NCBI GenBank assembly: GCA_934876235.1
Contig: CAKXKM010000001.1
Coordinates: 832-64,831 of the forward strand
Source of the DNA: Collinsella sp. AF02-46-1
GTDB taxonomy: Bacteria; Actinomycetota; Coriobacteriia; Coriobacteriales; Coriobacteriaceae
Reading direction: 5' to 3'
Length of the DNA stretch: 64,000 bases
Numbering within the stretch: position 1 is the first letter of the stretch; each line of letters starts with the position of its first letter. The translations under genes and the position numbers were made by a program. The notes below the pieces were generated by a model. It made no database searches and had not been told where the DNA came from. It saw only the letters and a program-made list of their open reading frames with translations. Below, in pieces: positions 3,928 to 57,328 of this stretch.

Positions 3928-3968
3928 GCTGCAATGAGAACAGGTTGACGCACGCCAGCCTCTTAACG

Positions 3969-4299
3969 CAAGGAGTGTCCCAAACTGCCGGCACAAAAGG
4001 AACGTCCCCAAGTGCCGCAAAATGACGACATCCACTCTCGCTTTGTGGGTAGTCATTGGGGAGGTTCTTGTTTGACTAGTCGTTTAAAAACGTCCCCAAT
4101 GACTACCCAACGACTAGTCCGGACCAAGGCAACGCCGATGTTTTGGCAACGACAGCGAAAACCCGCCAGAGCGAGCAAGGTGCCTTGAAACGAGGCGGCA
4201 TTGATCTTTTGATCATGCCGCCGAAGTTGAAAGGCAGATTGCCGCTCTGGCGGGTTTGCAGCGTCAACTGGTTACGCGGGCTGGTAAGCCTGCGTAACC
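3969..4299 (+). repeat. intergenic structured repeat, family R1, copy A (long form with 5' modules M1 and a 16-bp inverted repeat, plus the conserved core 4137-4299)
   Basis: The core GATGTTTTGGCAACG..CAGCGA..CCAGAGCGAGCAAGG-hairpin1-..CGCTCTGG..GCAGCGTC..-hairpin2(GGTA loop) is shared with copies at 19641, 25634, 29415 and 49027. The copy ends 1 nt before the LCP stop codon (4300-4302). Confidence 0.8.
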
Positions 4300-5535
4300 C
4301 TAATAATTGGCCTCGTAGCCGTTGCCGTCGCCGGTGGGCTCTTCGTAGTAATCGGAACTGTCGCTCGAATCGTCGGAATCGTCAGAGCTGACCGATGAGG
4401 TTGCGGTACCGTTTGCGTAGTCGTCAGACGTGTTGTTGCTGAGGTCACCGATCGTAGAGCTGGAACCGTCGGAAAGACCCATGGTGTTGGGACCCTTGGG
4501 ATCCTTGCCGGCATCGACGCGCTCCATCATTTCCTTGAGCTCGTCCTCGTAGACAAAGACGTAGCTCACACCGTCGATCATGGTGCTGTCGTCGGCGTAC
4601 GAGGGCAGGTTGGCCGAGTAGATACCGTCGACATCCATACCGCGCATGGCGTTGACCGTAGCCACGATATCCTGAACGCTCATATCGGTTACAAGCATAT
4701 CGGACAGCGAATTAACCAGGCCAAAGATCTTCGTGGCATCGAAGTTATTGAGAATCTGGTTGGCAAGGGCGCCAAGCACCTGACGCTGGTGGCGCATGCG
4801 CGTGTAATCGCCGTCGGCATAGGTGTAGCGGCAGCGGGCATAGGTAAGGGCGGTGGCACCGTCCATATGCTGCTGGCCAGCGGTAATCTTAATATCCAGG
4901 TGCTCGGGGTCGTCAACATCATCGGTTGCGTTAATGTCGATACCGCCAACCGAATCAATCAGCGCCTGCATACCGTCGAAGCTGACCTCGGCATAGTGGG
5001 AAATCTGAACACCGCACAGCTCGTTGACCGCCTCGACCATGGCCTCGGCGCCGCCAACGGTATGGCAGGCGTTGATCTTCATGGTCTCGCCCTTGTACTC
5101 GACCTTGGTGTCGCGCGGAACGGAAATGAGCGTCGCCTGCTTTTGCGTGGGGTCGATGCGTGCCAGGATAATCGAGTCGGCACGATACGTATCCTCGCCC
5201 GGACGGCCGTCGGTGCCAAGAAGCAGCACGTAGAACGGATCCTTTGCCTCATCGGTGTCAACCAGAACCCGACGCAGATTGTCAGTAATGACATTAGAAT
5301 CGCCGAGCTTGCCCATAATGGTGGCAAACCACAGGCCGGCAGCGGTAGTGGCACTCAGCAGCACGCCAAGCACGACAATGAGCGCGACGTGACGAATCGT
5401 GTGGCTACGGCGGCGTTGACGAGCGCGCTCGGAATAGCGAGCCACGTTATCGCGACTGTAGATCTTGGCCTGCGCACCAGTTGAGGGTCTTCGGGTGGTG
5501 GTATCCGCGAGGGGCTTTTTATTAAACATAGGCAA
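4300..5535 (-). CDS. LytR-CpsA-Psr (LCP) family cell-envelope phosphotransferase
   Basis: An N-terminal TM helix, LCP motifs (LLLGTDGR, DSIILARID, LISVPRDT) and an acidic Ser/Asp-rich C-terminal tail. Confidence 0.85.
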   Translation of the reverse strand: MPMFNKKPLADTTTRRPSTGAQAKIYSRDNVARYSERARQRRRSHTIRHVALIVVLGVLLSATTAAGLWFATIMGKLGDSNVITDNLRRVLVDTDEAKDPFYVLLLGTDGRPGEDTYRADSIILARIDPTQKQATLISVPRDTKVEYKGETMKINACHTVGGAEAMVEAVNELCGVQISHYAEVSFDGMQALIDSVGGIDINATDDVDDPEHLDIKITAGQQHMDGATALTYARCRYTYADGDYTRMRHQRQVLGALANQILNNFDATKIFGLVNSLSDMLVTDMSVQDIVATVNAMRGMDVDGIYSANLPSYADDSTMIDGVSYVFVYEDELKEMMERVDAGKDPKGPNTMGLSDGSSSTIGDLSNNTSDDYANGTATSSVSSDDSDDSSDSSDYYEEPTGDGNGYEANY

Positions 5536-5541
5536 CCTGTA

Positions 5542-6825
5542 TTAGTAGATGACGGGATCGGGGACGGTAGCATGCTCGACATGCGCGCCGAGCGCCTGCA
5601 GCTTTTCGACAAACTGCTCGTAGCCGCGCTTGATGTGATGGATAGCCGAAACCTCGGTCGTCCCGTCGGCGATCAAGCCCGCTACGACGAGGGCCGCTCC
5701 GCCGCGCAAATCGGGCGAGGTAACCTGTGCACCCGAGAAGCCCTTGACGCCATGAATCATGGCATGATGGCTCTCGATACGAATGTCGGCACCCATGCGC
5801 ACCAGCTCAGAGGCAAACATAAAGCGATTCTCGAAGATGTTCTCGGTAATAACGGAACTGCCGTCGGCAAGGGCGGAGAGCACCATAATCTGCGCCTGCA
5901 TGTCGGTCGGGAAACCGGGGAACGGAAGCGTCTGGATGTCGACCGGCTTAATACGCTCGGCACGGTTCACATGGACGCCATCCTCGACGCGCTCGCAGTC
6001 GATACCCATGAGCTCCATCTTCTTGAGCACCATGCCCAAATGAATGGGGCAAAAGCCCGTGACATCGACACCGCGATTGTCCGCCATCAACGCACCGGCG
6101 ACGATAAAGGTACCGGCCTCGATGCGGTCGCCCACCACGCGATGGATAACGGGATGGAGCTCTTCCACGCCTTCGATAGTCACGACGGGCGTACCGGCGC
6201 CAACAATCTTGGCGCCCATCTCGTTGAGCATGTTGGCGAGATCGACGATCTCGGGCTCGCGGGCGGCATTGTCGATAACCGTGGTGCCCTGTGCGCGCAC
6301 AGAGGCCATGATGAGATTCTCGGTCGCACCGACGCTGGCGAACTCGAGCGTGACGGTGGTACCGCGCAGACCTTGGGGCGCATTAGCGTTGATGTAACCG
6401 TGGGCGGTATCGAACTCAACGCCCAGGGCCTCAAGACCAAGAATGTGCATATCGATCTTACGAGCACCCAGGTTGCAGCCGCCCGGCATGGCAATTTTGG
6501 CGCGATGGAAGCGGCCCAGCAGGGGCCCCATGACGGCGGTGGAAGCGCGCATCTTGGCAACGAGCTCGTAGGGGGCCTCCCATGAATCGACCTGAGAGGT
6601 ATCAATCTCGAGCGTGTGCTCGTCGAGAACATCGATCGTAGCGCCCATGCCCTTGAGCACCTTGCCCATCACGTGGACATCGGAAATATCGGGCACGTTC
6701 TGCAGCGTCGTCTTGCCCGGCGCCAGAAGCGTTGCCGCCATGAGTTTGAGCGCGGAGTTCTTGGCGCCCGAGACGGGCACGGAGCCTCCGATGGCGTGGC
6801 CACCCTCAACGCGGATAATATCCAA
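5542..6825 (-). CDS. murA: UDP-N-acetylglucosamine 1-carboxyvinyltransferase
   Basis: 427 aa with full-length similarity to MurA (GGHAIGGSVPVSGAKNS...). Confidence 0.9.
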   Translation of the reverse strand: MDIIRVEGGHAIGGSVPVSGAKNSALKLMAATLLAPGKTTLQNVPDISDVHVMGKVLKGMGATIDVLDEHTLEIDTSQVDSWEAPYELVAKMRASTAVMGPLLGRFHRAKIAMPGGCNLGARKIDMHILGLEALGVEFDTAHGYINANAPQGLRGTTVTLEFASVGATENLIMASVRAQGTTVIDNAAREPEIVDLANMLNEMGAKIVGAGTPVVTIEGVEELHPVIHRVVGDRIEAGTFIVAGALMADNRGVDVTGFCPIHLGMVLKKMELMGIDCERVEDGVHVNRAERIKPVDIQTLPFPGFPTDMQAQIMVLSALADGSSVITENIFENRFMFASELVRMGADIRIESHHAMIHGVKGFSGAQVTSPDLRGGAALVVAGLIADGTTEVSAIHHIKRGYEQFVEKLQALGAHVEHATVPDPVIY

Positions 6826-17993: not shown

Positions 17994-19268
17994 TTACTGG
18001 CGTTGCTTGGGCTCGGTGACGATGGCTCGGACAATGCGGGGGCGATCGGTGAGGTCGTGGACGATACGCACGTCCGAAAGGCCTGCTTGACGACAGAGCT
18101 CGGCCGCGGCGTCGAGCGCGCCCTCGTAGAGCTCGCAGGCAAACAGGCCGCCGGCACGCAGCATGTAGGGCGCCGCGTTGAGCAGGCGGCGGAAGATATC
18201 GAGACCGTCGGCACCGCCCTCGAGCGCCAGATCGGGCTCAAAGTCCTTGACCTCATGCGGCAGCGAGCGCATGACGTCGGTCGGGATGTAAGGTGGGTTG
18301 GAGACGAGCACATCAAAGGTGCCCCACTCTTCGCGGGGAATGGAACTCACCAGGTTTGTGAGGCTGAAGGCGACCTCGTCGGACGTGAGGCCAAGCGCAT
18401 CACGGTTTTTGGTGGCCAGATCGATGGCGCGCGGCTCGATATCGGTAGCAGTGCAGGTAACGTGGCCGCGGCGCTCCCAGGCAAGGGAGAGCGAAATGCA
18501 GCCCGTGCCGCAGCCGACCTCGAGAACGCGGGCAGTGCGGGGCTCGGCTGGGGCAGATACGTTGGCCTCGGCGGCATCTTGCGCGGGAGTCGCCTGTTGG
18601 TCGTTGTCCTCAATGGCGATGCCGTATTCGTCGAGCTCGGGCTCGGGGGTTTCCATGGCCTCTGCTTCTGCCGCTTCGGCTTCTGCCGCCTGCGCGGCGG
18701 CTTCCTCGGCCTCGCGATCGGCCAGTTCCTCGGCATAAGCGCGACTGCCCAGCACATCGCCGCCTAGCGCCGCCTCGTCGGCAGCTGTGAGGTTGGCGGC
18801 ACGGCGCTCGGCCGTCGCTCGCTCGTCGGCCAATGCGGCCTCGGCCTTGCGTGCCTCCTCGACCTCATCGTTCCAAGGCAGCTCAACACGCTGACGGGCA
18901 GCGGCCTCGGGGCTCAGTACCTCGGCATCCAGATAATTGAGGACTTCCTCGACGAGCATCTCGGTCTCGGGGCGCGGAATGAGCACACCGGGGGCGCACG
19001 CGACGTCGATCATGCGAAACTGCGTGCTGCCCGTGATGTATTGCAGCGGCTCGCCCTTAGCGCGGCGGACAACGGCCGCATGCATGGTCTCGAGCTGGGC
19101 CGCGTTAAGCGTCTCGTCCATACGCATATATAGGTCAATGCGCGCCAGGCCCGTGGCGGCGCACAGCAGCCACTCGGCAGAAAGACGGGGGTGCTCCTCG
19201 CCGCGCTCGGCCAGGTACTCCTTGGTCCACTCGAGACAACGCTTGATGGTCCAAATCTCGTTTGCCAT
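17994..19268 (-). CDS. prmC: release factor glutamine N5-methyltransferase PrmC/HemK, with a roughly 150-aa low-complexity insertion
   Basis: HemK N-domain, MTase motif I VLEVGCGTGCISL and NPPY motif VSNPPYIPT. An acidic/Ala-rich insert (EEAAAQAAEAEAAEAEA...) precedes motif I. The track ORF starts at 19343; the start is probably MANEIW at 19268. Confidence 0.8.
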   Translation of the reverse strand: MANEIWTIKRCLEWTKEYLAERGEEHPRLSAEWLLCAATGLARIDLYMRMDETLNAAQLETMHAAVVRRAKGEPLQYITGSTQFRMIDVACAPGVLIPRPETEMLVEEVLNYLDAEVLSPEAAARQRVELPWNDEVEEARKAEAALADERATAERRAANLTAADEAALGGDVLGSRAYAEELADREAEEAAAQAAEAEAAEAEAMETPEPELDEYGIAIEDNDQQATPAQDAAEANVSAPAEPRTARVLEVGCGTGCISLSLAWERRGHVTCTATDIEPRAIDLATKNRDALGLTSDEVAFSLTNLVSSIPREEWGTFDVLVSNPPYIPTDVMRSLPHEVKDFEPDLALEGGADGLDIFRRLLNAAPYMLRAGGLFACELYEGALDAAAELCRQAGLSDVRIVHDLTDRPRIVRAIVTEPKQRQ

Positions 19269-19640
19269 GGGGCCCTCCCCTCTTAAGCGCCGGACGGCGC
19301 GCGAATGTCGGAGCAGATTGTAAGCGAGGCCAGCGCTTGGCAAGGGGCGATTGAAGGCGATTATCGAGAATCAGCCCAGAATTTTGCACCGAGCTCGCTC
19401 AAAGTGTTCATTCGCTGACGTCTAAATTTGCATTCGTCAAGCTTTTGGCAAGGTTGCCCCAAAACTGACCAATATCTAACCAAGAACTTGCCACATCGCT
19501 TGACGCACGACCCATCAAAAATCGCTCCGCGACTTCTTGAACGATATTTTGAGCAATATTTTCGATAGCAGATATATGCCGTCAATTACCTTAAGCAGGT
19601 AAGCAGCTCAAATGACATCACAGCCGACTGAATAAAATAT

Positions 19641-19858
19641 CAAGGCAATGTCACCAATGACTCCCTACGGATCATTTGACAACCAAGGAAACGCCGATGT
19701 TTTGGCAATGTCAGCGAGCGACGTCCAGAGCGAACAAGTTGGCATGAAAAAGGCAAGGCATAGACCTTCTGGTCATGCCTTGCCTTTTGAATGACAAATT
19801 GTCGCTCTGGGCGGCGCGCAGCGTCGAGCAGTTACGGCGTTTGGTAAAACGCCGTAAC
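19641..19858 (+). repeat. structured repeat family R1, copy B
   Basis: Same conserved core as copy A (GATG at 19696). The copy ends exactly at the prfA stop codon (19859-19861). Confidence 0.8.
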
Positions 19859-20926
19859 TTAAACAGCCTGTGCCAGCTTCTCGGCACGCTCGGCGGCGGC
19901 GAGCGCCTCGATGACGGTGCCGAGCTGGTCGCCCAGGAGGACGCCGTTGTAGGTGGAGTTGAAGCCGATGCGGTGATCGGTCACGCGGTCCTGGGGCTGG
20001 TTGTAGGTACGGATCTTCTCGGAACGGTTGCCGTGGCCGATCTGGCTCTGGCGCTCGGCACCGAGCTCCGCCTGCTGCTTCTCGAGCTCCATCTCGTACA
20101 GACGGGCGCGCAGCATCTGCATGCAGACTTCGCGGTTCTGGATCTGGGAGCGCTGTTCCTGCGACTGCACCACGGTGTTGGTGGGCAGGTGGGTGATGCG
20201 CACGGCAGAATAAGTGGTGTTAACGCACTGACCGCCAGGGCCGGAGGCGCAGTAGGTGTCGATGCGCAGGTCGGACTGGTTGATCTGGACGTCGATTTCC
20301 TCGGCCTCGGGAAGTACGGCGACGGTTGCCGTGGAGGTCTGGATGCGACCCTGGGACTCGGTCTTGGGGACACGCTGGACACGGTGCACGCCGGACTCGA
20401 ACTTCATGACGGAGTAGACGCGGTCGCCCTCGACCTTGAACTCAATGGACTTAAAGCCGCCGGCCTCGCTGGGGCTGGAGTCGAGCACGGTGGTCTTCCA
20501 GCCGCGCGACTCACAGAAGCGCTGATACATCTTGTACAGATCGCCGGCAAAGATGGCCGCCTCGTCGCCACCGGCGGCGGAGCGAATCTCGACGATGGTG
20601 TTCTTGTCGTCGTTGGGGTCGCTCGGGATGAGCATGTACTTAATGTCTTCCTCGAGCTGGGGAAGCTTGGCCTCGTTTTCGGAGATGTCCATCTGGAGCA
20701 TCTCCTTCTCATCGGCATCGGTAGTATCGTGGAGCATTTCCTTGGCAGCCTCGATGTCATCGAGCGCGCCGATGTACTCGCGCGAGGCGGCGATGAGGTC
20801 GGACTGGTGCGCGTACTCCTTGTTGAGACGCGTGAACTCCTTGATGTCGGAGGCAACGGCCGGGTCGGAAAGCTTCTTCTCGAGCTCCTCGTAGGCCTTG
20901 ATAATCTTTTCGAGCTTGTCGCGCAT
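19859..20926 (-). CDS. prfA: peptide chain release factor 1
   Basis: GGQ motif (GPGGQCVNTT) and PxT-type RF1 domain organisation; 355 aa. Confidence 0.95.
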   Translation of the reverse strand: MRDKLEKIIKAYEELEKKLSDPAVASDIKEFTRLNKEYAHQSDLIAASREYIGALDDIEAAKEMLHDTTDADEKEMLQMDISENEAKLPQLEEDIKYMLIPSDPNDDKNTIVEIRSAAGGDEAAIFAGDLYKMYQRFCESRGWKTTVLDSSPSEAGGFKSIEFKVEGDRVYSVMKFESGVHRVQRVPKTESQGRIQTSTATVAVLPEAEEIDVQINQSDLRIDTYCASGPGGQCVNTTYSAVRITHLPTNTVVQSQEQRSQIQNREVCMQMLRARLYEMELEKQQAELGAERQSQIGHGNRSEKIRTYNQPQDRVTDHRIGFNSTYNGVLLGDQLGTVIEALAAAERAEKLAQAV

Positions 20927-21124
20927 GGCGGGACTCCTTTATATGCGTGAAGGTGAAAATCGGCAGAGTTGATGGGGCGCGCGGCGCCACTGTGGGGGTA
21001 AGCCCGGCTAGAACATGTCGATCTTCAGATACATGCGCATCCCTTCGCGTATGGGGTACATAGTTGCGGTCTAACCCATACATGATAGCGTGCGCAGGCA
21101 AACCTGCATATAACCCGCACGGAA

Positions 21125-21153
21125 TGTGACAAAGGGACAGTCCCTTTGTCACA
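21125..21153. repeat. palindromic repeat family R2, short copy (TGTGACAAAGGGAC AG TCCCTTTGTCACA)
   Basis: A perfect 13-bp inverted repeat with a 2-nt spacer, ending 2 nt before the stop of the M20 peptidase gene. The same palindrome recurs at 57271 and, as degenerate variants (GTGACGAAGGAGC-AG-CCCCCTTGTCAC and GTGGCAAAGGGAC-TGTC-TTTTGTTTCAC), at 27829 and 32891. Confidence 0.75.
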
Positions 21154-21155
21154 TC

Positions 21156-22571
21156 CTAGAGCGTTTGAAGCAGAGCGATGAGGAAGCGAACGCCCTGGAG
21201 GTAGGCGCGGCGGGTAATGCGCTCGTTGGTGCCGTGGACGCCGCGATCGCACTCGTCATCGTCGACCACAAACGCCGAAAAACGAATGCATTCGGAGCAA
21301 ATGTGCTGGTAGTTGGCAGCGTCGGTCGCGCCGATCACGGTCGAGGGGACAATCGCCAACGGCTCGGATGATCCGTTTTCCTCCGTCCCCTTTGGATCGC
21401 GGAAATAGCGGGCAGCGATGGAGCGAACCGCCTCGAGGCCGGGACCACCGATGCGCGGGGACGGCGAGGGCTCGGAGCTGCCGGGGCCCAGCTCCACTTC
21501 GACACGACCGGCAAGGTCCGCCCCGGCAACCGCCTCACGGCAGCGCGCCACAACGTCGGCCACGCTCGTGCCCTCGAGCATGCGGAAGTTAATGTTGGCC
21601 CACATATCCTGCGGCATTACGTTGGCGCCGGCGCTGCCTCCCTCGATCTGCGTGGGCGCGCAGGTGGTCGTCACCAGCGGATAGAGCTTTTTGCTGGCGA
21701 GGCACTCGCGCACGATGGCATCCCCGTTGGCGGCAATCTCATCCGCCGTGTAGAGCCCCAGCTCGACAAGCTGCGCGGCAAGCAGGTCCGTGACGCGCGT
21801 CGGCCACTCGATATCGCAGATTGCGGCGATGGCACGGCTGAGCACCTCGAGCGACGTGCCGCCGTAGGGGTTAGACGAATGCCCGCCCTCGCTACGCGTC
21901 CTCAACACGATATCGGCGTAGCCCTTTTCGGCCAGGTCGGCATGCATAAGCCAGCCCTCGCCCGCGCCGTACTCGGCAGCCGAAACGATACGGTAGTCAC
22001 CCTCGTCGATCAGGAACTCGAGCTCAACACCGCGCTCCTCGAGCACGCGGCCGATAGCTCCAGCGCCGTACTGCGTGGTTTCCTCGTCCTGGCCAAAGGC
22101 GAGCAACAGCGAACGCTTGTGCTCCCAACCGTGCGCCAACGCATACTCAACCGCCTCGAGAATGCCTGCGACCTGATCCTTCATGTCGATAGCGCCGCGA
22201 CCCCAAATGTAGGTGTCGTCCACCTGTCCGCTAAAGGGGGCGTGCGTCCAGTCGGCCTCGGTACCCGGCACCACGGGGACCACGTCCATGTGGCCCATGA
22301 GCATGACGGGTTTGAGGGCGGAGTCGGAGCCGGAAAGCGTCACCAGCAACGAACGATCGATGAGCTCAGCCTTACCCGCCGCAAATACGTGCGGCCAGGC
22401 CTGCTGCATATACGCGCGCAGGTCGTCGAAGGGCTGCCAATCCACCGCCTCGGCATCCATGCTCGAAATGGTCGGAAACGACAGCACGCGGCCCAAGCGC
22501 TCGCACGCGCCGGCCTCGTCTATATCGGCAAAATCGTCCTCATGCGCAAAGAAGCGCCAAACCTCGGCCAT
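21156..22571 (-). CDS. M20-family metallopeptidase (dipeptidase/carboxypeptidase-like)
   Basis: 471 aa with motif LMGHMDVVPV and M20 dimerisation-domain organisation. Confidence 0.7.
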   Translation of the reverse strand: MAEVWRFFAHEDDFADIDEAGACERLGRVLSFPTISSMDAEAVDWQPFDDLRAYMQQAWPHVFAAGKAELIDRSLLVTLSGSDSALKPVMLMGHMDVVPVVPGTEADWTHAPFSGQVDDTYIWGRGAIDMKDQVAGILEAVEYALAHGWEHKRSLLLAFGQDEETTQYGAGAIGRVLEERGVELEFLIDEGDYRIVSAAEYGAGEGWLMHADLAEKGYADIVLRTRSEGGHSSNPYGGTSLEVLSRAIAAICDIEWPTRVTDLLAAQLVELGLYTADEIAANGDAIVRECLASKKLYPLVTTTCAPTQIEGGSAGANVMPQDMWANINFRMLEGTSVADVVARCREAVAGADLAGRVEVELGPGSSEPSPSPRIGGPGLEAVRSIAARYFRDPKGTEENGSSEPLAIVPSTVIGATDAANYQHICSECIRFSAFVVDDDECDRGVHGTNERITRRAYLQGVRFLIALLQTL

Positions 22572-25633: not shown

Positions 25634-25815
25634 GGTAGTCATTGGGAGCGTCGATGTTTTGGCAATGCCAGCGAGCGCCGCCCAGAGCGAACAAGTTAGC
25701 ATGAAAAAGGCAAGGCATAGACCTTCTGGTCATGCCTTGCCTTTTGAATGACAAATTGTCGCTCTGGGTGGCGCGCAGCGTCGACCGGTCCGTCGTTCGT
25801 TAGAACGGCGGAACC
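25634..25815 (+). repeat. structured repeat family R1, copy C
   Basis: Same conserved core (GATG at 25653). The 5' end shares GGTAGTCATTGGG with copy A. The copy ends 1 nt before the aldose-epimerase stop codon (25817-25819). Confidence 0.8.
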
Positions 25816-25816
25816 T

Positions 25817-26710
25817 CTAGAGCAGGGTAACGCTAAAGCTGCGAACGTCCGTCTCACCCGGTGCCAAGGTAATGGTGTTGACCTTGTGCTCAAAGACGTC
25901 GTCCTCGGTGTCCATGGTGGTGTGGCCGGTCCAGGGCTCGAGCGCCACAAACGGGGCGTCGTTGGCGGCAGACCACACGCCGATGTACTTAAAGCCCTCA
26001 AAGTCGATCTTGACGCCGTGGCCCGACTTGCGGCCGCGCAGCGTGAGCGTGGAACCCGGGACATCGGTGAACATGATGGCATCGTTATCGAAGCTGCGGT
26101 GCGTGATGGGCAGCACGTCCGAGTTATCGGGAGCCTTGTAGCTACCCTCGAACGTCATGAGACCGTCGGGCGTGATGATGGGAGCCTCGTTCGTCCAGGC
26201 CTCGGTAAACGCCAGCTCGTAATCCTCGAATACCTCGTCCTCGGCACCGGGGGCGGGCACGTTAAATGCGGGGTGGCCGCCCACCGAGAACGGCAGGTCC
26301 ACGTCGCCGGTGTTCGTAACGGCAAAGGTCTGGGTAAGCGTGGCGTCGCCGGTCAGGGCATAGGTCATGTTGAGCTTAAAGTGAAACGGAAAGGCCTTGA
26401 GCGACTCGGGCGTATCGGTGATCTCGTACGTTACCGAGGAGCCGTCCTCCGAAACCTCGACCAGCTTGTGCTCGACGATGCGCGCGAGTCCGTGGCGCGG
26501 CATCTCGCAGGTGCCGGCCGCAGACGTTGCCGTGTTGTTGCGCAGCGAGCCCACAATGGGGAACAGGATGGGCGCATGCTTGCCCCAAAAGGTGGGATCG
26601 CCCTGCCACAGATACTCGTTGCCGTTGAGGGCAAGGCTCGTGAGCTGGGCACCCATGGAATCGATGGCCGCGGTGAGGCCGCCGCGCTTGATGGTAGTGA
26701 CGGTGGACAT
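25817..26710 (-). CDS. aldose 1-epimerase family protein (YihR-like)
   Basis: Motifs ILFPIVGSLRN and GGHPAFN; about 297 aa from the internal Met. Confidence 0.75.
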   Translation of the reverse strand: MSTVTTIKRGGLTAAIDSMGAQLTSLALNGNEYLWQGDPTFWGKHAPILFPIVGSLRNNTATSAAGTCEMPRHGLARIVEHKLVEVSEDGSSVTYEITDTPESLKAFPFHFKLNMTYALTGDATLTQTFAVTNTGDVDLPFSVGGHPAFNVPAPGAEDEVFEDYELAFTEAWTNEAPIITPDGLMTFEGSYKAPDNSDVLPITHRSFDNDAIMFTDVPGSTLTLRGRKSGHGVKIDFEGFKYIGVWSAANDAPFVALEPWTGHTTMDTEDDVFEHKVNTITLAPGETDVRSFSVTLL

Positions 26711-27659: not shown

Positions 27660-27744
27660 ACGGGGCGCCCCTTAAGCCTCGCAAATAAACACTTGCCAGC
27701 CTTATACCCCCAGATGGCGCGGGAACTCGCCGGCACAGACAGGA

Positions 27745-27860
27745 AAACCGTCACAACATTCGACGCTTTTCCTCGTTTTCGAGATTTTCGCCGAATGTTG
27801 TGACGGTTTGGGCAGCAGCCACACCGCGAATGTGACGAAGGAGCAGCCCCCTTGTCACAT
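27745..27860. repeat. repeat family R2, composite copy 1 (hairpin CGTCACAACATT-N33-AATGTTGTGACG plus palindrome variant GTGACGAAGGAGC..CCCCCTTGTCAC)
   Basis: Nearly identical to the composite copy at 32824-32922. Its palindrome arm contains the MerR-gene stop codon (27855-27857). Confidence 0.75.
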
Positions 27861-29394: not shown

Positions 29395-29414
29395 GACAAC
29401 TCCTAACAACAAAA

Positions 29415-29584
29415 TGGCAGCTATAGGTCGGGCAATGTCAGCGAGCGCGCGTCTGGCGAGGCAAGGTGCCCCGAAACAAGAAGGCATAGGGCTTATGCCC
29501 ATGCCTTCGCAGTTGAGGGGCAGATTGCCCGCCAGGCGCGGGCGCAGCGTCGAGTGGTCCGGCGTTCGGTAGAACGCCGGAACC
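29415..29584 (+). repeat. structured repeat family R1, copy D
   Basis: Variant core (GGGCAATGTCAGCGAGCG...) with the same helices carrying compensatory substitutions. The copy ends exactly at the ubiD stop codon (29585-29587), between ubiD and ubiX. Confidence 0.75.
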
Positions 29585-31075
29585 TTAGAAAGCAATCTCC
29601 TTGGCCCACTTGTCTGTGTCGATCTCCATGAACTGCGAGCGGATGAAGTTCTTCTTGAGGTCGAACGGGACCGTGCAGTCGAAGATGGCCTTGCAGGCGA
29701 TGCCGTGCTCGCGGATCGTGGGGTCGAACGCGGGGTCGTTGGACGGATCGAGCACGTGGCAGTGGCAACCGGGGATGGTGATGAGGTCCACGTCGGCCTG
29801 GAAGCGCGTGGTCATGGCCCACATCACGTCGCTCATATCGAAGATATCGACATCCTCGTCAACAAGGATGACGTGCTTGAGCTCGGAGAACGCCGAGAAG
29901 GCGAGCATGGCGGCGTTGCGCTGACGGCCCTCGTCATTTTTGCTCGACTTCTTGAACTGCATGATAGCAACGAACTTGCCGCCGCCGCAGGGAGCGGCGT
30001 GGACGTTGAGCAGACGGCCCGGGATGGCGGTCTCGACCATCTTGTAGATGGAGGCCTCGGTGGGGATACCGGCCATGGACACGTGCTCGTGCGAAGGACC
30101 GATGCAGCTCTCCATAATGGGGTTGACGCGCGTGGTAACGGCGGTGATCTTGATCACCGGGCAGACCTTGGCGCCACCGGTGTAACCGGGGAACTCGGGC
30201 ATGGCGTAGCCGTGGCCGTTGACGTCCTCGTTGATGGTCTCGTCGTGCATGAGGTAGCCCTCGAGCACGTACTCGGCATTGGCAATGCACTTCTGCGGAA
30301 CGGTGACGCAGTCGGCAAGCTCGACGGCGTGGCCGCGCAGGGCACCGGCGATCTGCAGCTCGTTGAAGCCGAGCGGCGTGGTGGGAGCCTCGAAGCCGCA
30401 GCACATGTACACGGCGGGGTCCAGACCGATGGAGATGGAGATGGGCATATCCTCGCCACGCTGGCAGTACTCGTCAAAGAACGCGCCCAGGTGACGGCTG
30501 CCGGGGGTAATCCACATGGCGAGCTTGTCCTTGTCGACGCAGGAGAAACGGTGGATGGTCACGTCGGACTGGGAGCCGTCGGGGCTCGTGCCGTAGGCGA
30601 GGCCCATGGTGATGTAGGGGCCGCCGTCGACGGGCGTGTTGGTAGGAGCGGGAACGATCTTGCGCAGGTCAAAGCCCTCGTCGGTCGCCTTGTACACGAC
30701 CTCCTGGCAGTCGACGTGCGCACCCTCGGCGATCTGCTCGGGCGCGATCAGGTTCTCGAAGCGCTTGCCGATCTCGAGGCCCAGGTGCTCCTCGTCCAGG
30801 TCGAGCAGGGCGGCAACGCGCTTGCGGCTGGCAAGCATGCCGATGCAGACCTTGGCATCGTCAAAGCCCTTGACGTTGTTGAAGACCATCGCCGGGCCCT
30901 CTTTGGTCGGGCGCATAACGGTGCCGCCGGCACCGACGTGACGATAGACACCCGAGACCTCGGCGTCCGGGTCGACCTGAGTGTCGGTCTCGAGCAGCTG
31001 GCCCGGCATCTCGCGCAAAAAGTCGAGCGCGGAGCGCAGGTCGTGGATCTGGGAAGCATCGGTAGTGGACATAGC
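29585..31075 (-). CDS. ubiD: UbiD-family prFMN-dependent (de)carboxylase
   Basis: 497 aa from MSTTDASQ with full-length UbiD-family similarity. The track ORF starts at 31150. Confidence 0.85.
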   Translation of the reverse strand, partial: AMSTTDASQIHDLRSALDFLREMPGQLLETDTQVDPDAEVSGVYRHVGAGGTVMRPTKEGPAMVFNNVKGFDDAKVCIGMLASRKRVAALLDLDEEHLGLEIGKRFENLIAPEQIAEGAHVDCQEVVYKATDEGFDLRKIVPAPTNTPVDGGPYITMGLAYGTSPDGSQSDVTIHRFSCVDKDKLAMWITPGSRHLGAFFDEYCQRGEDMPISISIGLDPAVYMCCGFEAPTTPLGFNELQIAGALRGHAVELADCVTVPQKCIANAEYVLEGYLMHDETINEDVNGHGYAMPEFPGYTGGAKVCPVIKITAVTTRVNPIMESCIGPSHEHVSMAGIPTEASIYKMVETAIPGRLLNVHAAPCGGGKFVAIMQFKKSSKNDEGRQRNAAMLAFSAFSELKHVILVDEDVDIFDMSDVMWAMTTRFQADVDLITIPGCHCHVLDPSNDPAFDPTIREHGIACKAIFDCTVPFDLKKNFIRSQFMEIDTDKWAKEIAF

Positions 31076-32672: not shown

Positions 32673-32823
32673 CTCCCCACCTTTCTTGTTGGGGGCGCTC
32701 CGGATTCGCGGCCACGTTGCCACTTAAAAAGGGGCGCCCGTTATCGGACACCCCTTACGTTGCGCTGTGTTGTGGCAATACAGTCAAGCGGGATTTTTGG
32801 ATGAGAAGCGATCCTCTGGACAA

Positions 32824-32922
32824 AAAGCGTCACAACATTCGACGCTTTTCCTCGTTTTCGAGATTTTCATCAAATGTTGTGACGGTTTGGATGTGGCAAA
32901 GGGACTGTCTTTTGTTTCACAT
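32824..32922. repeat. repeat family R2, composite copy 2
   Basis: Same hairpin CGTCACAACATT...AATGTTGTGACG followed by palindrome variant ATGTGGCAAAGGGAC..TTTTGTTTCACAT. The palindrome contains the stop codon (32917-32919) of the upstream gene. Confidence 0.75.
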
Positions 32923-49026: not shown

Positions 49027-49312
49027 GAGGTAGTCGTTGGGGACGTTCTTAAATGACTAGTCGACACAAGGAGTGTCCCAAAGTGCCGACAGAAAAGGAA
49101 CGTCCCCAAGTGCCGCCCCCAACGACTACTCGCCAGCAACGGCAATGTCGATGTCTTGGCAACGATAGCGAAAACCCGCCAGAGCGAGCAAGGTGCCTTG
49201 AAACAAGGCGGCATTGACCTTTTGGTCATGCCGCCGAAGTTGAACGCCAGATTGCCGCTTAGGAGCGTTTGCAGCGTCGAGCGGTTACGGCGTTTGGCAA
49301 AACTCCGTAACT
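49027..49312 (+). repeat. structured repeat family R1, copy E (long form with inverted-repeat and M1 modules in a different order from copy A)
   Basis: Core from 49150 (GATGTCTTGGCAACGATAGCGAAAACCCGCCAGAGCGAGCAAGG...). The M1 module CAAGGAGTGTCCCAAAGTGCCGACAGAAAAGGAACGTCCCCAAGTGCCGC is flanked by the inverted repeat GAGGTAGTCGTTGGGG / CCCCAACGACTACTC. Confidence 0.8.
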
Positions 49313-57260: not shown

Positions 57261-57270
57261 TTTTACCGAT

Positions 57271-57297
57271 GCGACAAAGGGACAGTCCCTTTGTCGC
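57271..57297. repeat. palindromic repeat family R2, short copy (GCGACAAAGGGAC AG TCCCTTTGTCGC)
   Basis: Same 13-2-13 palindrome as at 21125, located 10 nt after the MFS stop codon. Confidence 0.7.
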
Positions 57298-57328
57298 ATT
57301 CCACCGCCACCAGTATTAAGGAGTCGAA

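Follow-up and report, generated by a model that had tools for sequence, protein, structure and literature searches.

A stretch of 64,000 nt from a Collinsella aerofaciens-like genome (the window) contains five copies, A to E, of a repeat of about 172-175 nt that is here called R1. It looks like an undescribed family within the known class of gene-end repeats that resemble repetitive extragenic palindromes (REPs), and its placement is unusually strict. Each copy lies on the + strand and scores 172-199 bits with a covariance model trained on copies A-E plus strain variants, and the same model applied over the whole window detects no further full copy. The order in which the components follow a neighboring gene is fixed, namely gene, stop codon, a terminal palindrome referred to as hairpin 2, and then the rest of the element; this arrangement, which an initial annotation of the DNA had described, holds in the window and across the genus. 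The reading favored here, in which we place roughly even confidence, is that R1 is a Collinsella-specific composite palindromic repeat of the same kind as REPs, bacterial interspersed mosaic elements (BIMEs) and BOX elements, and that it would serve as a module flanking the 3′ ends of genes in a single orientation.

Within the window, the junctions are exact to the base. As the initial annotation had stated, hairpin 2 of copies A-D ends 0-1 nt from a stop codon on the minus strand, directly adjoining the stops of the LCP, prfA and ubiD genes in copies A, B and D, and separated by a single nucleotide, T25816, from that of the aldose epimerase gene in copy C. In copy B, T19859 of the prfA stop is able to pair with A19830, and the bounds of hairpin 2 are 19830/31-19858/59. 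If placement were uniform over the roughly 265, 419, 37 and 18 positions possible, four gaps of 0-1 nt would be expected by chance with a probability of about 1e-6 to 1e-5. Four of the five copies thus meet a stop, as had been noted, and copy E, which resides between divergent promoters, is the exception. The identities of the neighboring genes are confirmed by Pfam (LytR_cpsA_psr, PCRF/RF-1, Aldose_epim and UbiD); the PrfA protein of the window is found unchanged in many gut assemblies, the closed genome CP024160 also carries this prfA, and an exact-protein look-up of its UbiD returned no record.

Similar junctions are found throughout the genus. A scan with an exact pattern, using one genome per species, gave at least 119 Collinsella loci among the matches listed, and the genome matches listed are all labeled Collinsella except for two oddly labeled metagenome bins. 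In these loci, 127 R1 copies lie next to 29 open reading frame (ORF) families. Setting aside a spurious antisense ORF leaves 28 genuine neighbor families, and in 26 of them the stop of the convergent gene starts between -1 and +8 nt from the end of hairpin 2 in at least one member. A hairpin of at least 8 bp occurs within 7 nt of the stop in 59 of 66 R1-flanked genes (89%), compared with 14 (3.7%) of the 375 other genes that the same DNA contains, such that the R1 hairpin is held far closer to the gene end than are ordinary hairpins in the same genomes. Same-direction and convergent contexts (48 and 30, respectively) account for 78 of 91 cases, the remainder being divergent (7) or reversed (6). 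Both of the descriptions that the initial annotation had offered in this regard, a 3′-flank module of the REP or BOX type and a hairpin kept immediately after the stop, agree with these numbers.

The apparent exceptions, at distances of 18-97 nt, prove to be stacked partial units in which a second linker and hairpin 2, or a leftover arm, still abuts the stop, and in one neighbor family the gene has its own terminator between its stop and R1, giving a distance of 141 nt. Copies that lack hairpin 2 instead carry their linker 2-6 nt from the gene end; in one such family, the stop falls in sequence that resembles a hairpin 2 arm. Abutment is also seen at the ends of two RNA genes, where R1 has the same orientation as at stops. 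At locus L049, R1 and the RNase P RNA gene (rnpB, 5232-5593, minus strand) together span 5087-5593, with the linker ending at 5225, an arrangement present at six loci and without hairpin 2. At locus L012, R1 and the gene for the signal recognition particle (SRP) RNA (ffs, 4880-4975, minus strand) together span 4695-4975, and R1 ends at 4869, just after the T-tract; two loci are of this type. A different arrangement occurs in one locus family (L011, L019 and L059). There R1 fills the spacer between two same-direction genes but is reversed relative to transcription: its 5′ end follows the stop of one gene by about 10 nt, and hairpin 2 lies 5-7 nt before the ATG of the next (encoding MNIQIFGTKK...), where it may cover the ribosome-binding site.

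R1 is composed of a variable small 5′ hairpin, an interrupted hairpin of about 50 bp, the invariant linker GCAGCGTC, and hairpin 2. The last of these is a palindrome of 28-30 nt, with a 12-13-bp stem starting G-C, T-A, T-A and a 4-nt loop, and it occurs in two types (GTTACGGCG...CGCCGTAAC and GGTCCGCCG...CGGCGGAACC). Within the long hairpin, an invariant CAAG.T..C..GAAA lies opposite TTGA....CA.ATTG, which on the + strand produces a G.A mismatch and a tandem G.A/A.G mismatch. Pairing is well conserved: among 107 distinct copies, 96.1% of 5199 cells are paired, as against 78% for shuffles and 31-43% with slid partners, and 32 of 49 pairs display compensatory change on both sides. Watson-Crick pairs make up 95% of the total (49 pairs, 105 copies), and across the family the loops are fixed and the stems vary. 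Hairpin 2, read as its reverse complement, bears a loose resemblance to the left end of R1 (GGCAACGCCGATGTTTTGGCAA), but the two do not covary. Pairing of that end (AACGCCG) with the 5′ arm of hairpin 2 to close the element was rejected on the basis of its complementarity (4.14, versus 4.13 for shuffled partners). No parent insertion sequence matching the ends of R1 was seen. Rfam 15 has no match in the window at gathering thresholds, and a permissive search gave only hairpin matches at chance level.

The stop codons beside R1 belong to the genes and not to the element. The contrary proposal of the initial annotation, that the element supplies the TTA or CTA stop, is not borne out by orthologous loci, in which the same C-terminus and stop position occur without the element. 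At prfA of Enorma massiliensis and C. tanakaei, the covariance model finds no R1. The Enorma PrfA, of 355 aa, ends ...AEKLA(Q/E)AV, its gene closing with GCG GTC TAA followed by an ordinary terminator, and the C. tanakaei protein ends one residue later, at GTT GAC TGA, which is followed by a small hairpin. Likewise, the C-terminus EYHD is common to an occupied locus (L042, ...CATGAC TAA, then 4 nt and hairpin 2) and two empty ones (L111 and L025, ...CACGAT TAG), and ...C TAG ends the gene both at L108, which is occupied, and at L118, which has an ordinary terminator in place of R1. The junction itself is not constant. Ten strains with identical PrfA have TAA or TAG as the stop, and two of them carry three extra bases before the hairpin; spacers at other orthologous loci are 0, 1, 5 or 7 nt. 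In the L041 family, the palindrome is extended to take in the stop (GGTAGGTTAC...GTAACCTAC), and at some loci the distance is -1, with the G or C of the stop within the hairpin.

Every R1-adjacent stop is TAA or TAG, as a preference for TA-containing stops would predict, but this bias is uninformative because TGA makes up only 19 of 501 stops in Collinsella loci (3.8%), the other 482 being TAA or TAG, and only about one TGA is expected among 28 families. (Genes of the window genome, which is 60% G+C, hardly ever end in TGA, with 2 of 40 window genes doing so; C. tanakaei prfA does.) Duplication of a TA target, also suggested initially, has no counterpart in the flanks: the longest word common to both sides averages 3.61, compared with 3.63 +/- 0.08 for shuffled partners, and the left flanks are CCAA or CAAC, not TA.

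Table 1. Positions of the R1 copies in the window, of the parts of copy B, and of the adjoining stop codons.
Feature	Position	Strand	Context
R1 copy A	4128-4299	+	Between convergent M20 peptidase gene (+) and LCP gene (-); hairpin 2 4270-4299, ending ..GCGTAACC; LCP stop CTA 4300-4302 directly adjoining
R1 copy B	19687-19858	+	Between prfA stop and prmC; 198.6 bits with the covariance model; hairpin 2 ending ..CGCCGTAAC at 19858; prfA stop reads TTA on + strand
Copy B, 5′ hairpin	19693-19706	+	From sequence and consensus fold
Copy B, long interrupted hairpin	19714-19822	+	From sequence and consensus fold
Copy B, linker GCAGCGTC	19818-19825	+	From sequence and consensus fold
Copy B, apical stem-loop of long hairpin	19753-19782	-	Followed by TTTTTCA on the gene-sense strand; terminator-like
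prfA stop	19859-19861	-	TAA on minus strand; ORF 19859-20926; native to the gene, outside R1
R1 copy C	25644-25815	+	Hairpin 2 25787-25815, ending ..GGAACC; 1-nt gap to aldose epimerase stop CTA 25817-25819; start of downstream solute-binding-protein gene ~35 nt past other end
R1 copy D	29414-29584	+	Fills ubiD-ubiX spacer; hairpin 2 29556-29584, ending ..GGAACC; ubiD stop TTA 29585-29587 abuts hairpin 2; ubiX ATG ~29396, 17 nt past other end
R1 copy E	49141-49312	+	Between divergent pdxK-like kinase gene (-) and MarR regulator gene (+); touches no stop

Individual copies of R1 differ considerably between strains. At the prfA locus, where the element is present in 10 of 10 strains with identical PrfA, R1 is a mosaic in which the 5′ hairpin, the core and hairpin 2 are swapped independently. 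At the locus of copy E, strains with the same MarR protein differ in their alleles, from full through 5′-truncated to nearly absent; all of them retain the far arm of hairpin 2, and the junction is hypervariable. Partial units are stacked or deleted, the piece nearest the gene always being kept, and the “empty” allele of L111 and L025 retains sequence like one arm of hairpin 2. Taken together, the mosaic, stacked and remnant alleles suggest that gene conversion, unequal exchange, and deletions or extensions associated with the hairpins are frequent, all of which would take place at the level of DNA. In L138, L139 and L142 (MarR locus, ~960-1400), an unrelated segment of about 300 nt lies upstream of copy E, and in two of these cases the 5′ half of R1 is lost.

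In REPtron or REPIN systems, the repeats flank a single-copy transposase gene of the Y1 (IS200-like) type. A tblastn search of ~1.1 Mb of window and loci with an approximate IS200 TnpA query found no IS200 or REP-associated tyrosine transposase (RAYT) gene near the copies, in a sample of a kind that would rarely include a single-copy gene, and carriage by phage is limited to one viral contig. The bias of R1 with respect to replication strand, as judged by GC skew, is weak (69 negative, 41 positive). Identification of R1 as a TnpB omega-RNA, an IS110 bridge RNA, an integron attC site, a group IIC intron or a retron was rejected, there being no associated gene for any of these; for attC and the group IIC intron, the defining motifs (the R-box and GUGYG, respectively) are also missing, and it is the stems of R1 that vary and the loops that are fixed.

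The stem-loop at the apex of the long hairpin (mean -16 kcal/mol over 105 copies) resembles an intrinsic terminator when read in the sense of the adjoining gene. The tail that follows it contains 4.5 T per 9 nt on the gene-sense strand versus 2.65 on the + strand, and at least 5 T in 9 nt are present in 58 of 105 copies in the former direction as against 0 of 105 in the latter (examples of the gene-sense tail are CCTCTTTCA, TTTTTC and TTCGTTTCA). This tail is a strand-specific feature that agrees with the fixed orientation of R1. Among the window copies, a terminator scanner flags copy D only, and a scan for consensus promoters inside and beside the R1 copies found none. The closeness of copies C and D to the genes that follow them implies that R1 must be transcribed through in operons; in the case of copy D, the alternative is that R1 itself drives ubiX.

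Comparison with known repeats places R1 near several of them. REPs tagged with GTAG or CGTC are situated mostly between same-direction or convergent ORFs, no more than 20 bp from where the upstream ORF ends, and they sometimes provide a TAG stop. Their palindrome has a stem of 8-9 bp, in which pairs 1 and 2 are AT, and a 4-5-nt loop; the tag, CGTC or GTAG, is left unpaired at one of its ends, a CCA tail completes the definition, and no transposase is known for the CGTC class (Di Nocera et al., 2013; PMC3733652). R1 and the CGTC-tagged REPs are both many-copy intergenic palindromes that share this pattern of location, assemble into mosaic, dimeric or tandem units of higher order, carry CGTC beside the palindrome, and have a proposed role in stabilization of mRNA 3′ ends or termination. 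In contrast to the 20-40-bp unit of the tagged REPs, R1 is a fixed composite of 175 nt with a stem of 12-13 bp rather than 8-9 bp. Its CGTC, invariant within GCAGCGTC, is set back 4-5 nt from the stem, distal to the gene, and R1 has no CCA tail. The abutment of R1 is also tighter (74% within 3 nt), and Actinobacteria are not among the phyla with tagged REPs in that survey (PMC3733652).

Like R1, intrinsic terminators present a GC-rich hairpin that is followed, in the direction of the upstream gene, by a tail rich in U, and they occupy the same site in relatives that have no R1, as at Enorma prfA and at L118. R1 differs in that the U-tract is weak, the hairpin resides inside a longer conserved palindrome, and copies are also found within operons. 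The enterobacterial repetitive intergenic consensus (ERIC, or intergenic repeat unit, IRU), the Correia element (also termed NEMIS, for Neisseria miniature insertion sequence) and the pneumococcal BOX element are structured intergenic repeats of 100-200 nt that are co-transcribed with genes; their RNA folds into long hairpins, which influence how stable the mRNA is or serve as substrates for RNase III. BOX has a modular make-up, the effects of all three depend on orientation, and ERIC and Correia possess a TA duplication, which R1 lacks, and terminal inverted repeats, of which R1 shows no clear example. To our knowledge, none of the three has been reported so consistently at a stop codon in one orientation. 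Mycobacterial interspersed repetitive units (MIRUs), actinobacterial repeats of operon spacers, are said, in work by Supply and colleagues from 1997, to lie in one orientation with ends that overlap upstream stops, and to consist of tandem 40-100-bp units with short ORFs that couple translation. R1 is instead a single palindromic unit with no ORF. A conserved ORF would be incompatible with the compensatory stem changes, and no ATG, GTG or TTG overlaps the stops in copies A-D. ERIC, Correia, BOX and MIRU can be regarded as analogues of R1 in function whose ends differ from its own. A literature search found no paper on a Collinsella repeat.

Under the favored reading, R1 would be part of the transcript of the upstream gene, within which hairpin 2, together with the apical hairpin and the U-rich stretch behind it, could act as a leaky terminator and 3′-end stabilizer; full termination by copies inside operons would silence the downstream gene. 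In operon spacers such as ubiD-ubiX and prfA-prmC, read-through could generate a long double-stranded hairpin, possibly processed, that favors expression of the upstream gene. REPs in malEFG of E. coli favor the upstream gene. R1 would spread and be reshuffled without target-site duplication through single-strand transposition of the REP type or gene conversion. Deletions promoted by the hairpin may then trim the flank as far as the next essential base, whether of a stop codon or of a mature RNA 3′ end, and our best guess is that the exact abutment would result from such trimming.

Several observations weigh against this account. Trimming as far as the stop is not seen for the ordinary terminators of these genomes, which makes deletion pressure alone a weak explanation. 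Hairpin 2 has no U-tract on either strand, and that of the apical hairpin is weak. Furthermore, termination at the apical hairpin would leave the covarying distal arm untranscribed, and the proposed 3′-end function does not explain either the conservation of that arm or the exactness of the abutment. The balance of G-U against A-C mismatches, considered as an indicator of the strand of action, is not decisive over the 49 pairs: G-U cells are equally rare on the + strand (71) and the gene-sense strand (58), at ~1.3% each, so that pairing provides no strand-specific or RNA-specific signal and a palindrome acting at the DNA level fits as well. The invariant tandem mismatches, for their part, are G.A/A.G on the + strand and not on the gene-sense strand. 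Finally, no transposase partner for R1 was found in the ~1.1 Mb of window and loci.

Some of these same features would suit a selfish, non-autonomous mobile element that prefers the first bases past a gene end and has no host function, its structure being kept for the mobilizing enzyme. This alternative, unlikely in our view but the one that survives best, is consistent with an abutment that is tighter than that of native hairpins at protein and RNA genes alike, with spacers that differ between orthologous loci as independent or repeated arrivals would dictate, with polymorphic occupancy, and with near-wholly Watson-Crick pairing lacking a G-U excess, as expected of a DNA or single-stranded DNA substrate. 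A widespread repeat without a known transposase also has a precedent in the CGTC-tagged REPs (PMC3733652). However, R1 exhibits neither a target-site duplication nor a conserved target sequence at its junctions, the 1.1 Mb contains no transposase, and there is a single viral match; in addition, the “empty” site with its hairpin 2 arm looks like a deletion rather than a virgin target, and all 10 strains with identical PrfA are occupied at prfA. We know of no mechanism that recognizes gene ends irrespective of sequence, and this too counts against the proposal. A related and distinctly less probable idea is that R1 is mobilized, or replaced in place, by a mechanism that recognizes the end of the gene product itself, for example through insertion coupled to termination of transcription or translation. 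Copies would then land within a few bases of stop codons, and of the 3′ ends of mature RNase P and SRP RNAs, with no sequence-specific target and no duplication; if true, a bacterial repeat would be choosing its targets in a way that is new.

Slightly less probable again is a translation-coupled device, in which hairpin 2 would lie inside the footprint of a ribosome at the stop codon and be melted by termination, or stall it, with the effect of tuning the upstream gene or the way in which the remainder of R1 folds. REPs of E. coli within ~15 nt of a stop reportedly act in a translation-coupled manner, according to work by Liang, Rudd and Deutscher in 2015. The spacing of R1 drops sharply at ~7-8 nt, a distance close to the stretch of mRNA that a ribosome covers past its A site, and it is the length of the spacer that is constrained, its sequence being free. 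Yet the untranslated rnpB and ffs genes are abutted as well, as are stops next to copies without hairpin 2, and no covarying alternative partner exists for the arm that would be freed.

The + strand has also to be considered as a possible sense strand, as it would be if R1 copies were small RNA genes convergent with their neighbors, with hairpin 2 as their own terminator or with antisense transcripts running into the gene end. It is on the + strand only that the tandem G.A/A.G mismatches (TGAA opposite TGAA) and a G-U-rich small 5′ hairpin are seen, and the outer stem taken alone has a slight excess of G-U on this strand (48, versus 24 A-C). This possibility appears very improbable, given that a consensus scan finds no promoter-like site within the copies or ahead of them, that hairpin 2 is followed by no T-run, that the apical hairpin has no T-rich tail on this strand (0 of 105), that copy D in its operon spacer leaves no room for a promoter, and that there is no strand asymmetry in overall G-U use and no Rfam match. 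Weakest of all is a Correia-type or Tc1/IS630-type miniature inverted-repeat transposable element (MITE) that targets TA and creates or replaces the stop of its neighbor, which the uniformly TAA or TAG stops, the overlap of the stop's G or C with the hairpin (d = -1) at some loci, the inclusion of the stop in the L041 hairpin, the family whose stop falls in sequence like a hairpin 2 arm, and the reported donation of TAG stops by GTAG REPs (PMC3733652) might recall, but which is contradicted for four window copies and is hardly credible in light of the rarity of TGA (3.8% of stops), the C-termini and stops unchanged without R1, the variable 0-7-nt spacer, the lack of target-site duplication, and the copies that lie next to RNA genes or away from stops, where no YTA adjoins them.

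The surroundings of the window copies have further features. The prfA-prmC spacer measures 590 nt to the prmC ATG at 19268, and 515 nt only if counted to a far TTG at 19343. Copy B contributes 172 nt, and the corresponding Enorma spacer is 382 nt without R1. The distance to the ATG exceeds the 515 bp of the initial statement, and the long spacer is not mainly due to R1. By eye, the Enorma spacer is not similar to that of Collinsella. Between copy B and prmC, positions 19270-19686 form about 415 nt of A+T-rich non-coding DNA that is conserved over ten strains at an ordinary intergenic level; this segment has no Rfam match and no terminator, and its promoter-like sites amount to two 9-of-12 matches, which is about the chance level. 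After prmC, a cassette varies among loci with identical PrfA (L001-L010), consisting of HicB alone, HicA and HicB, or a Gp49-like protein and a helix-turn-helix (HTH) protein. Several PrfA gene calls from metagenomes (P0003-P0012) are 440-570 aa long with 99-100% identity, which suggests mis-called or chimeric ORFs.

Other repeats are also present in this DNA. A second palindrome family, ATGTGACAAAGGGACAGTCCCTTTGTCACAT, occurs at 21124-21154, 27830-27860 and 57269-57299, where the copies are, respectively, 1 nt from, overlapping, and 8 nt from the stops that lie at 21156, 27855 and 57260. Their appearance is that of shared terminators, and the motif is also found just before R1 in L108. A palindromic repeat of 68 nt (AAAACCGTCACAACATTCGACGC...GAATGTTGTGACGGTTTGG) is present at 27744-27811 and 32823-32890 with 94% identity. 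R1 copies A and E are closely preceded on their 5′ side by a further repeat module (3966-4110 and 49030-49130, respectively), which is based on GTAGTCRTTGGGGACGTTCTTAAATGACTAGTCG and its complement; some strains have this module at the prfA and MarR loci and others do not.

Collinsella is a very common genus of the human gut for which there is little molecular genetics. R1 is abundant at its gene ends, among them those of housekeeping operons such as prfA-prmC and ubiD-ubiX and of the RNase P and SRP RNAs, and likely shapes the 3′ ends of mRNAs and the expression ratios within operons. For annotation, the consequence is that gene callers may extend ORFs into R1, and the mosaic alleles are potentially useful as a strain marker. 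More generally, R1 constitutes an actinobacterial case of the question of why REP-like repeats gather at gene ends, and its tight, oriented abutment makes that question experimentally tractable.

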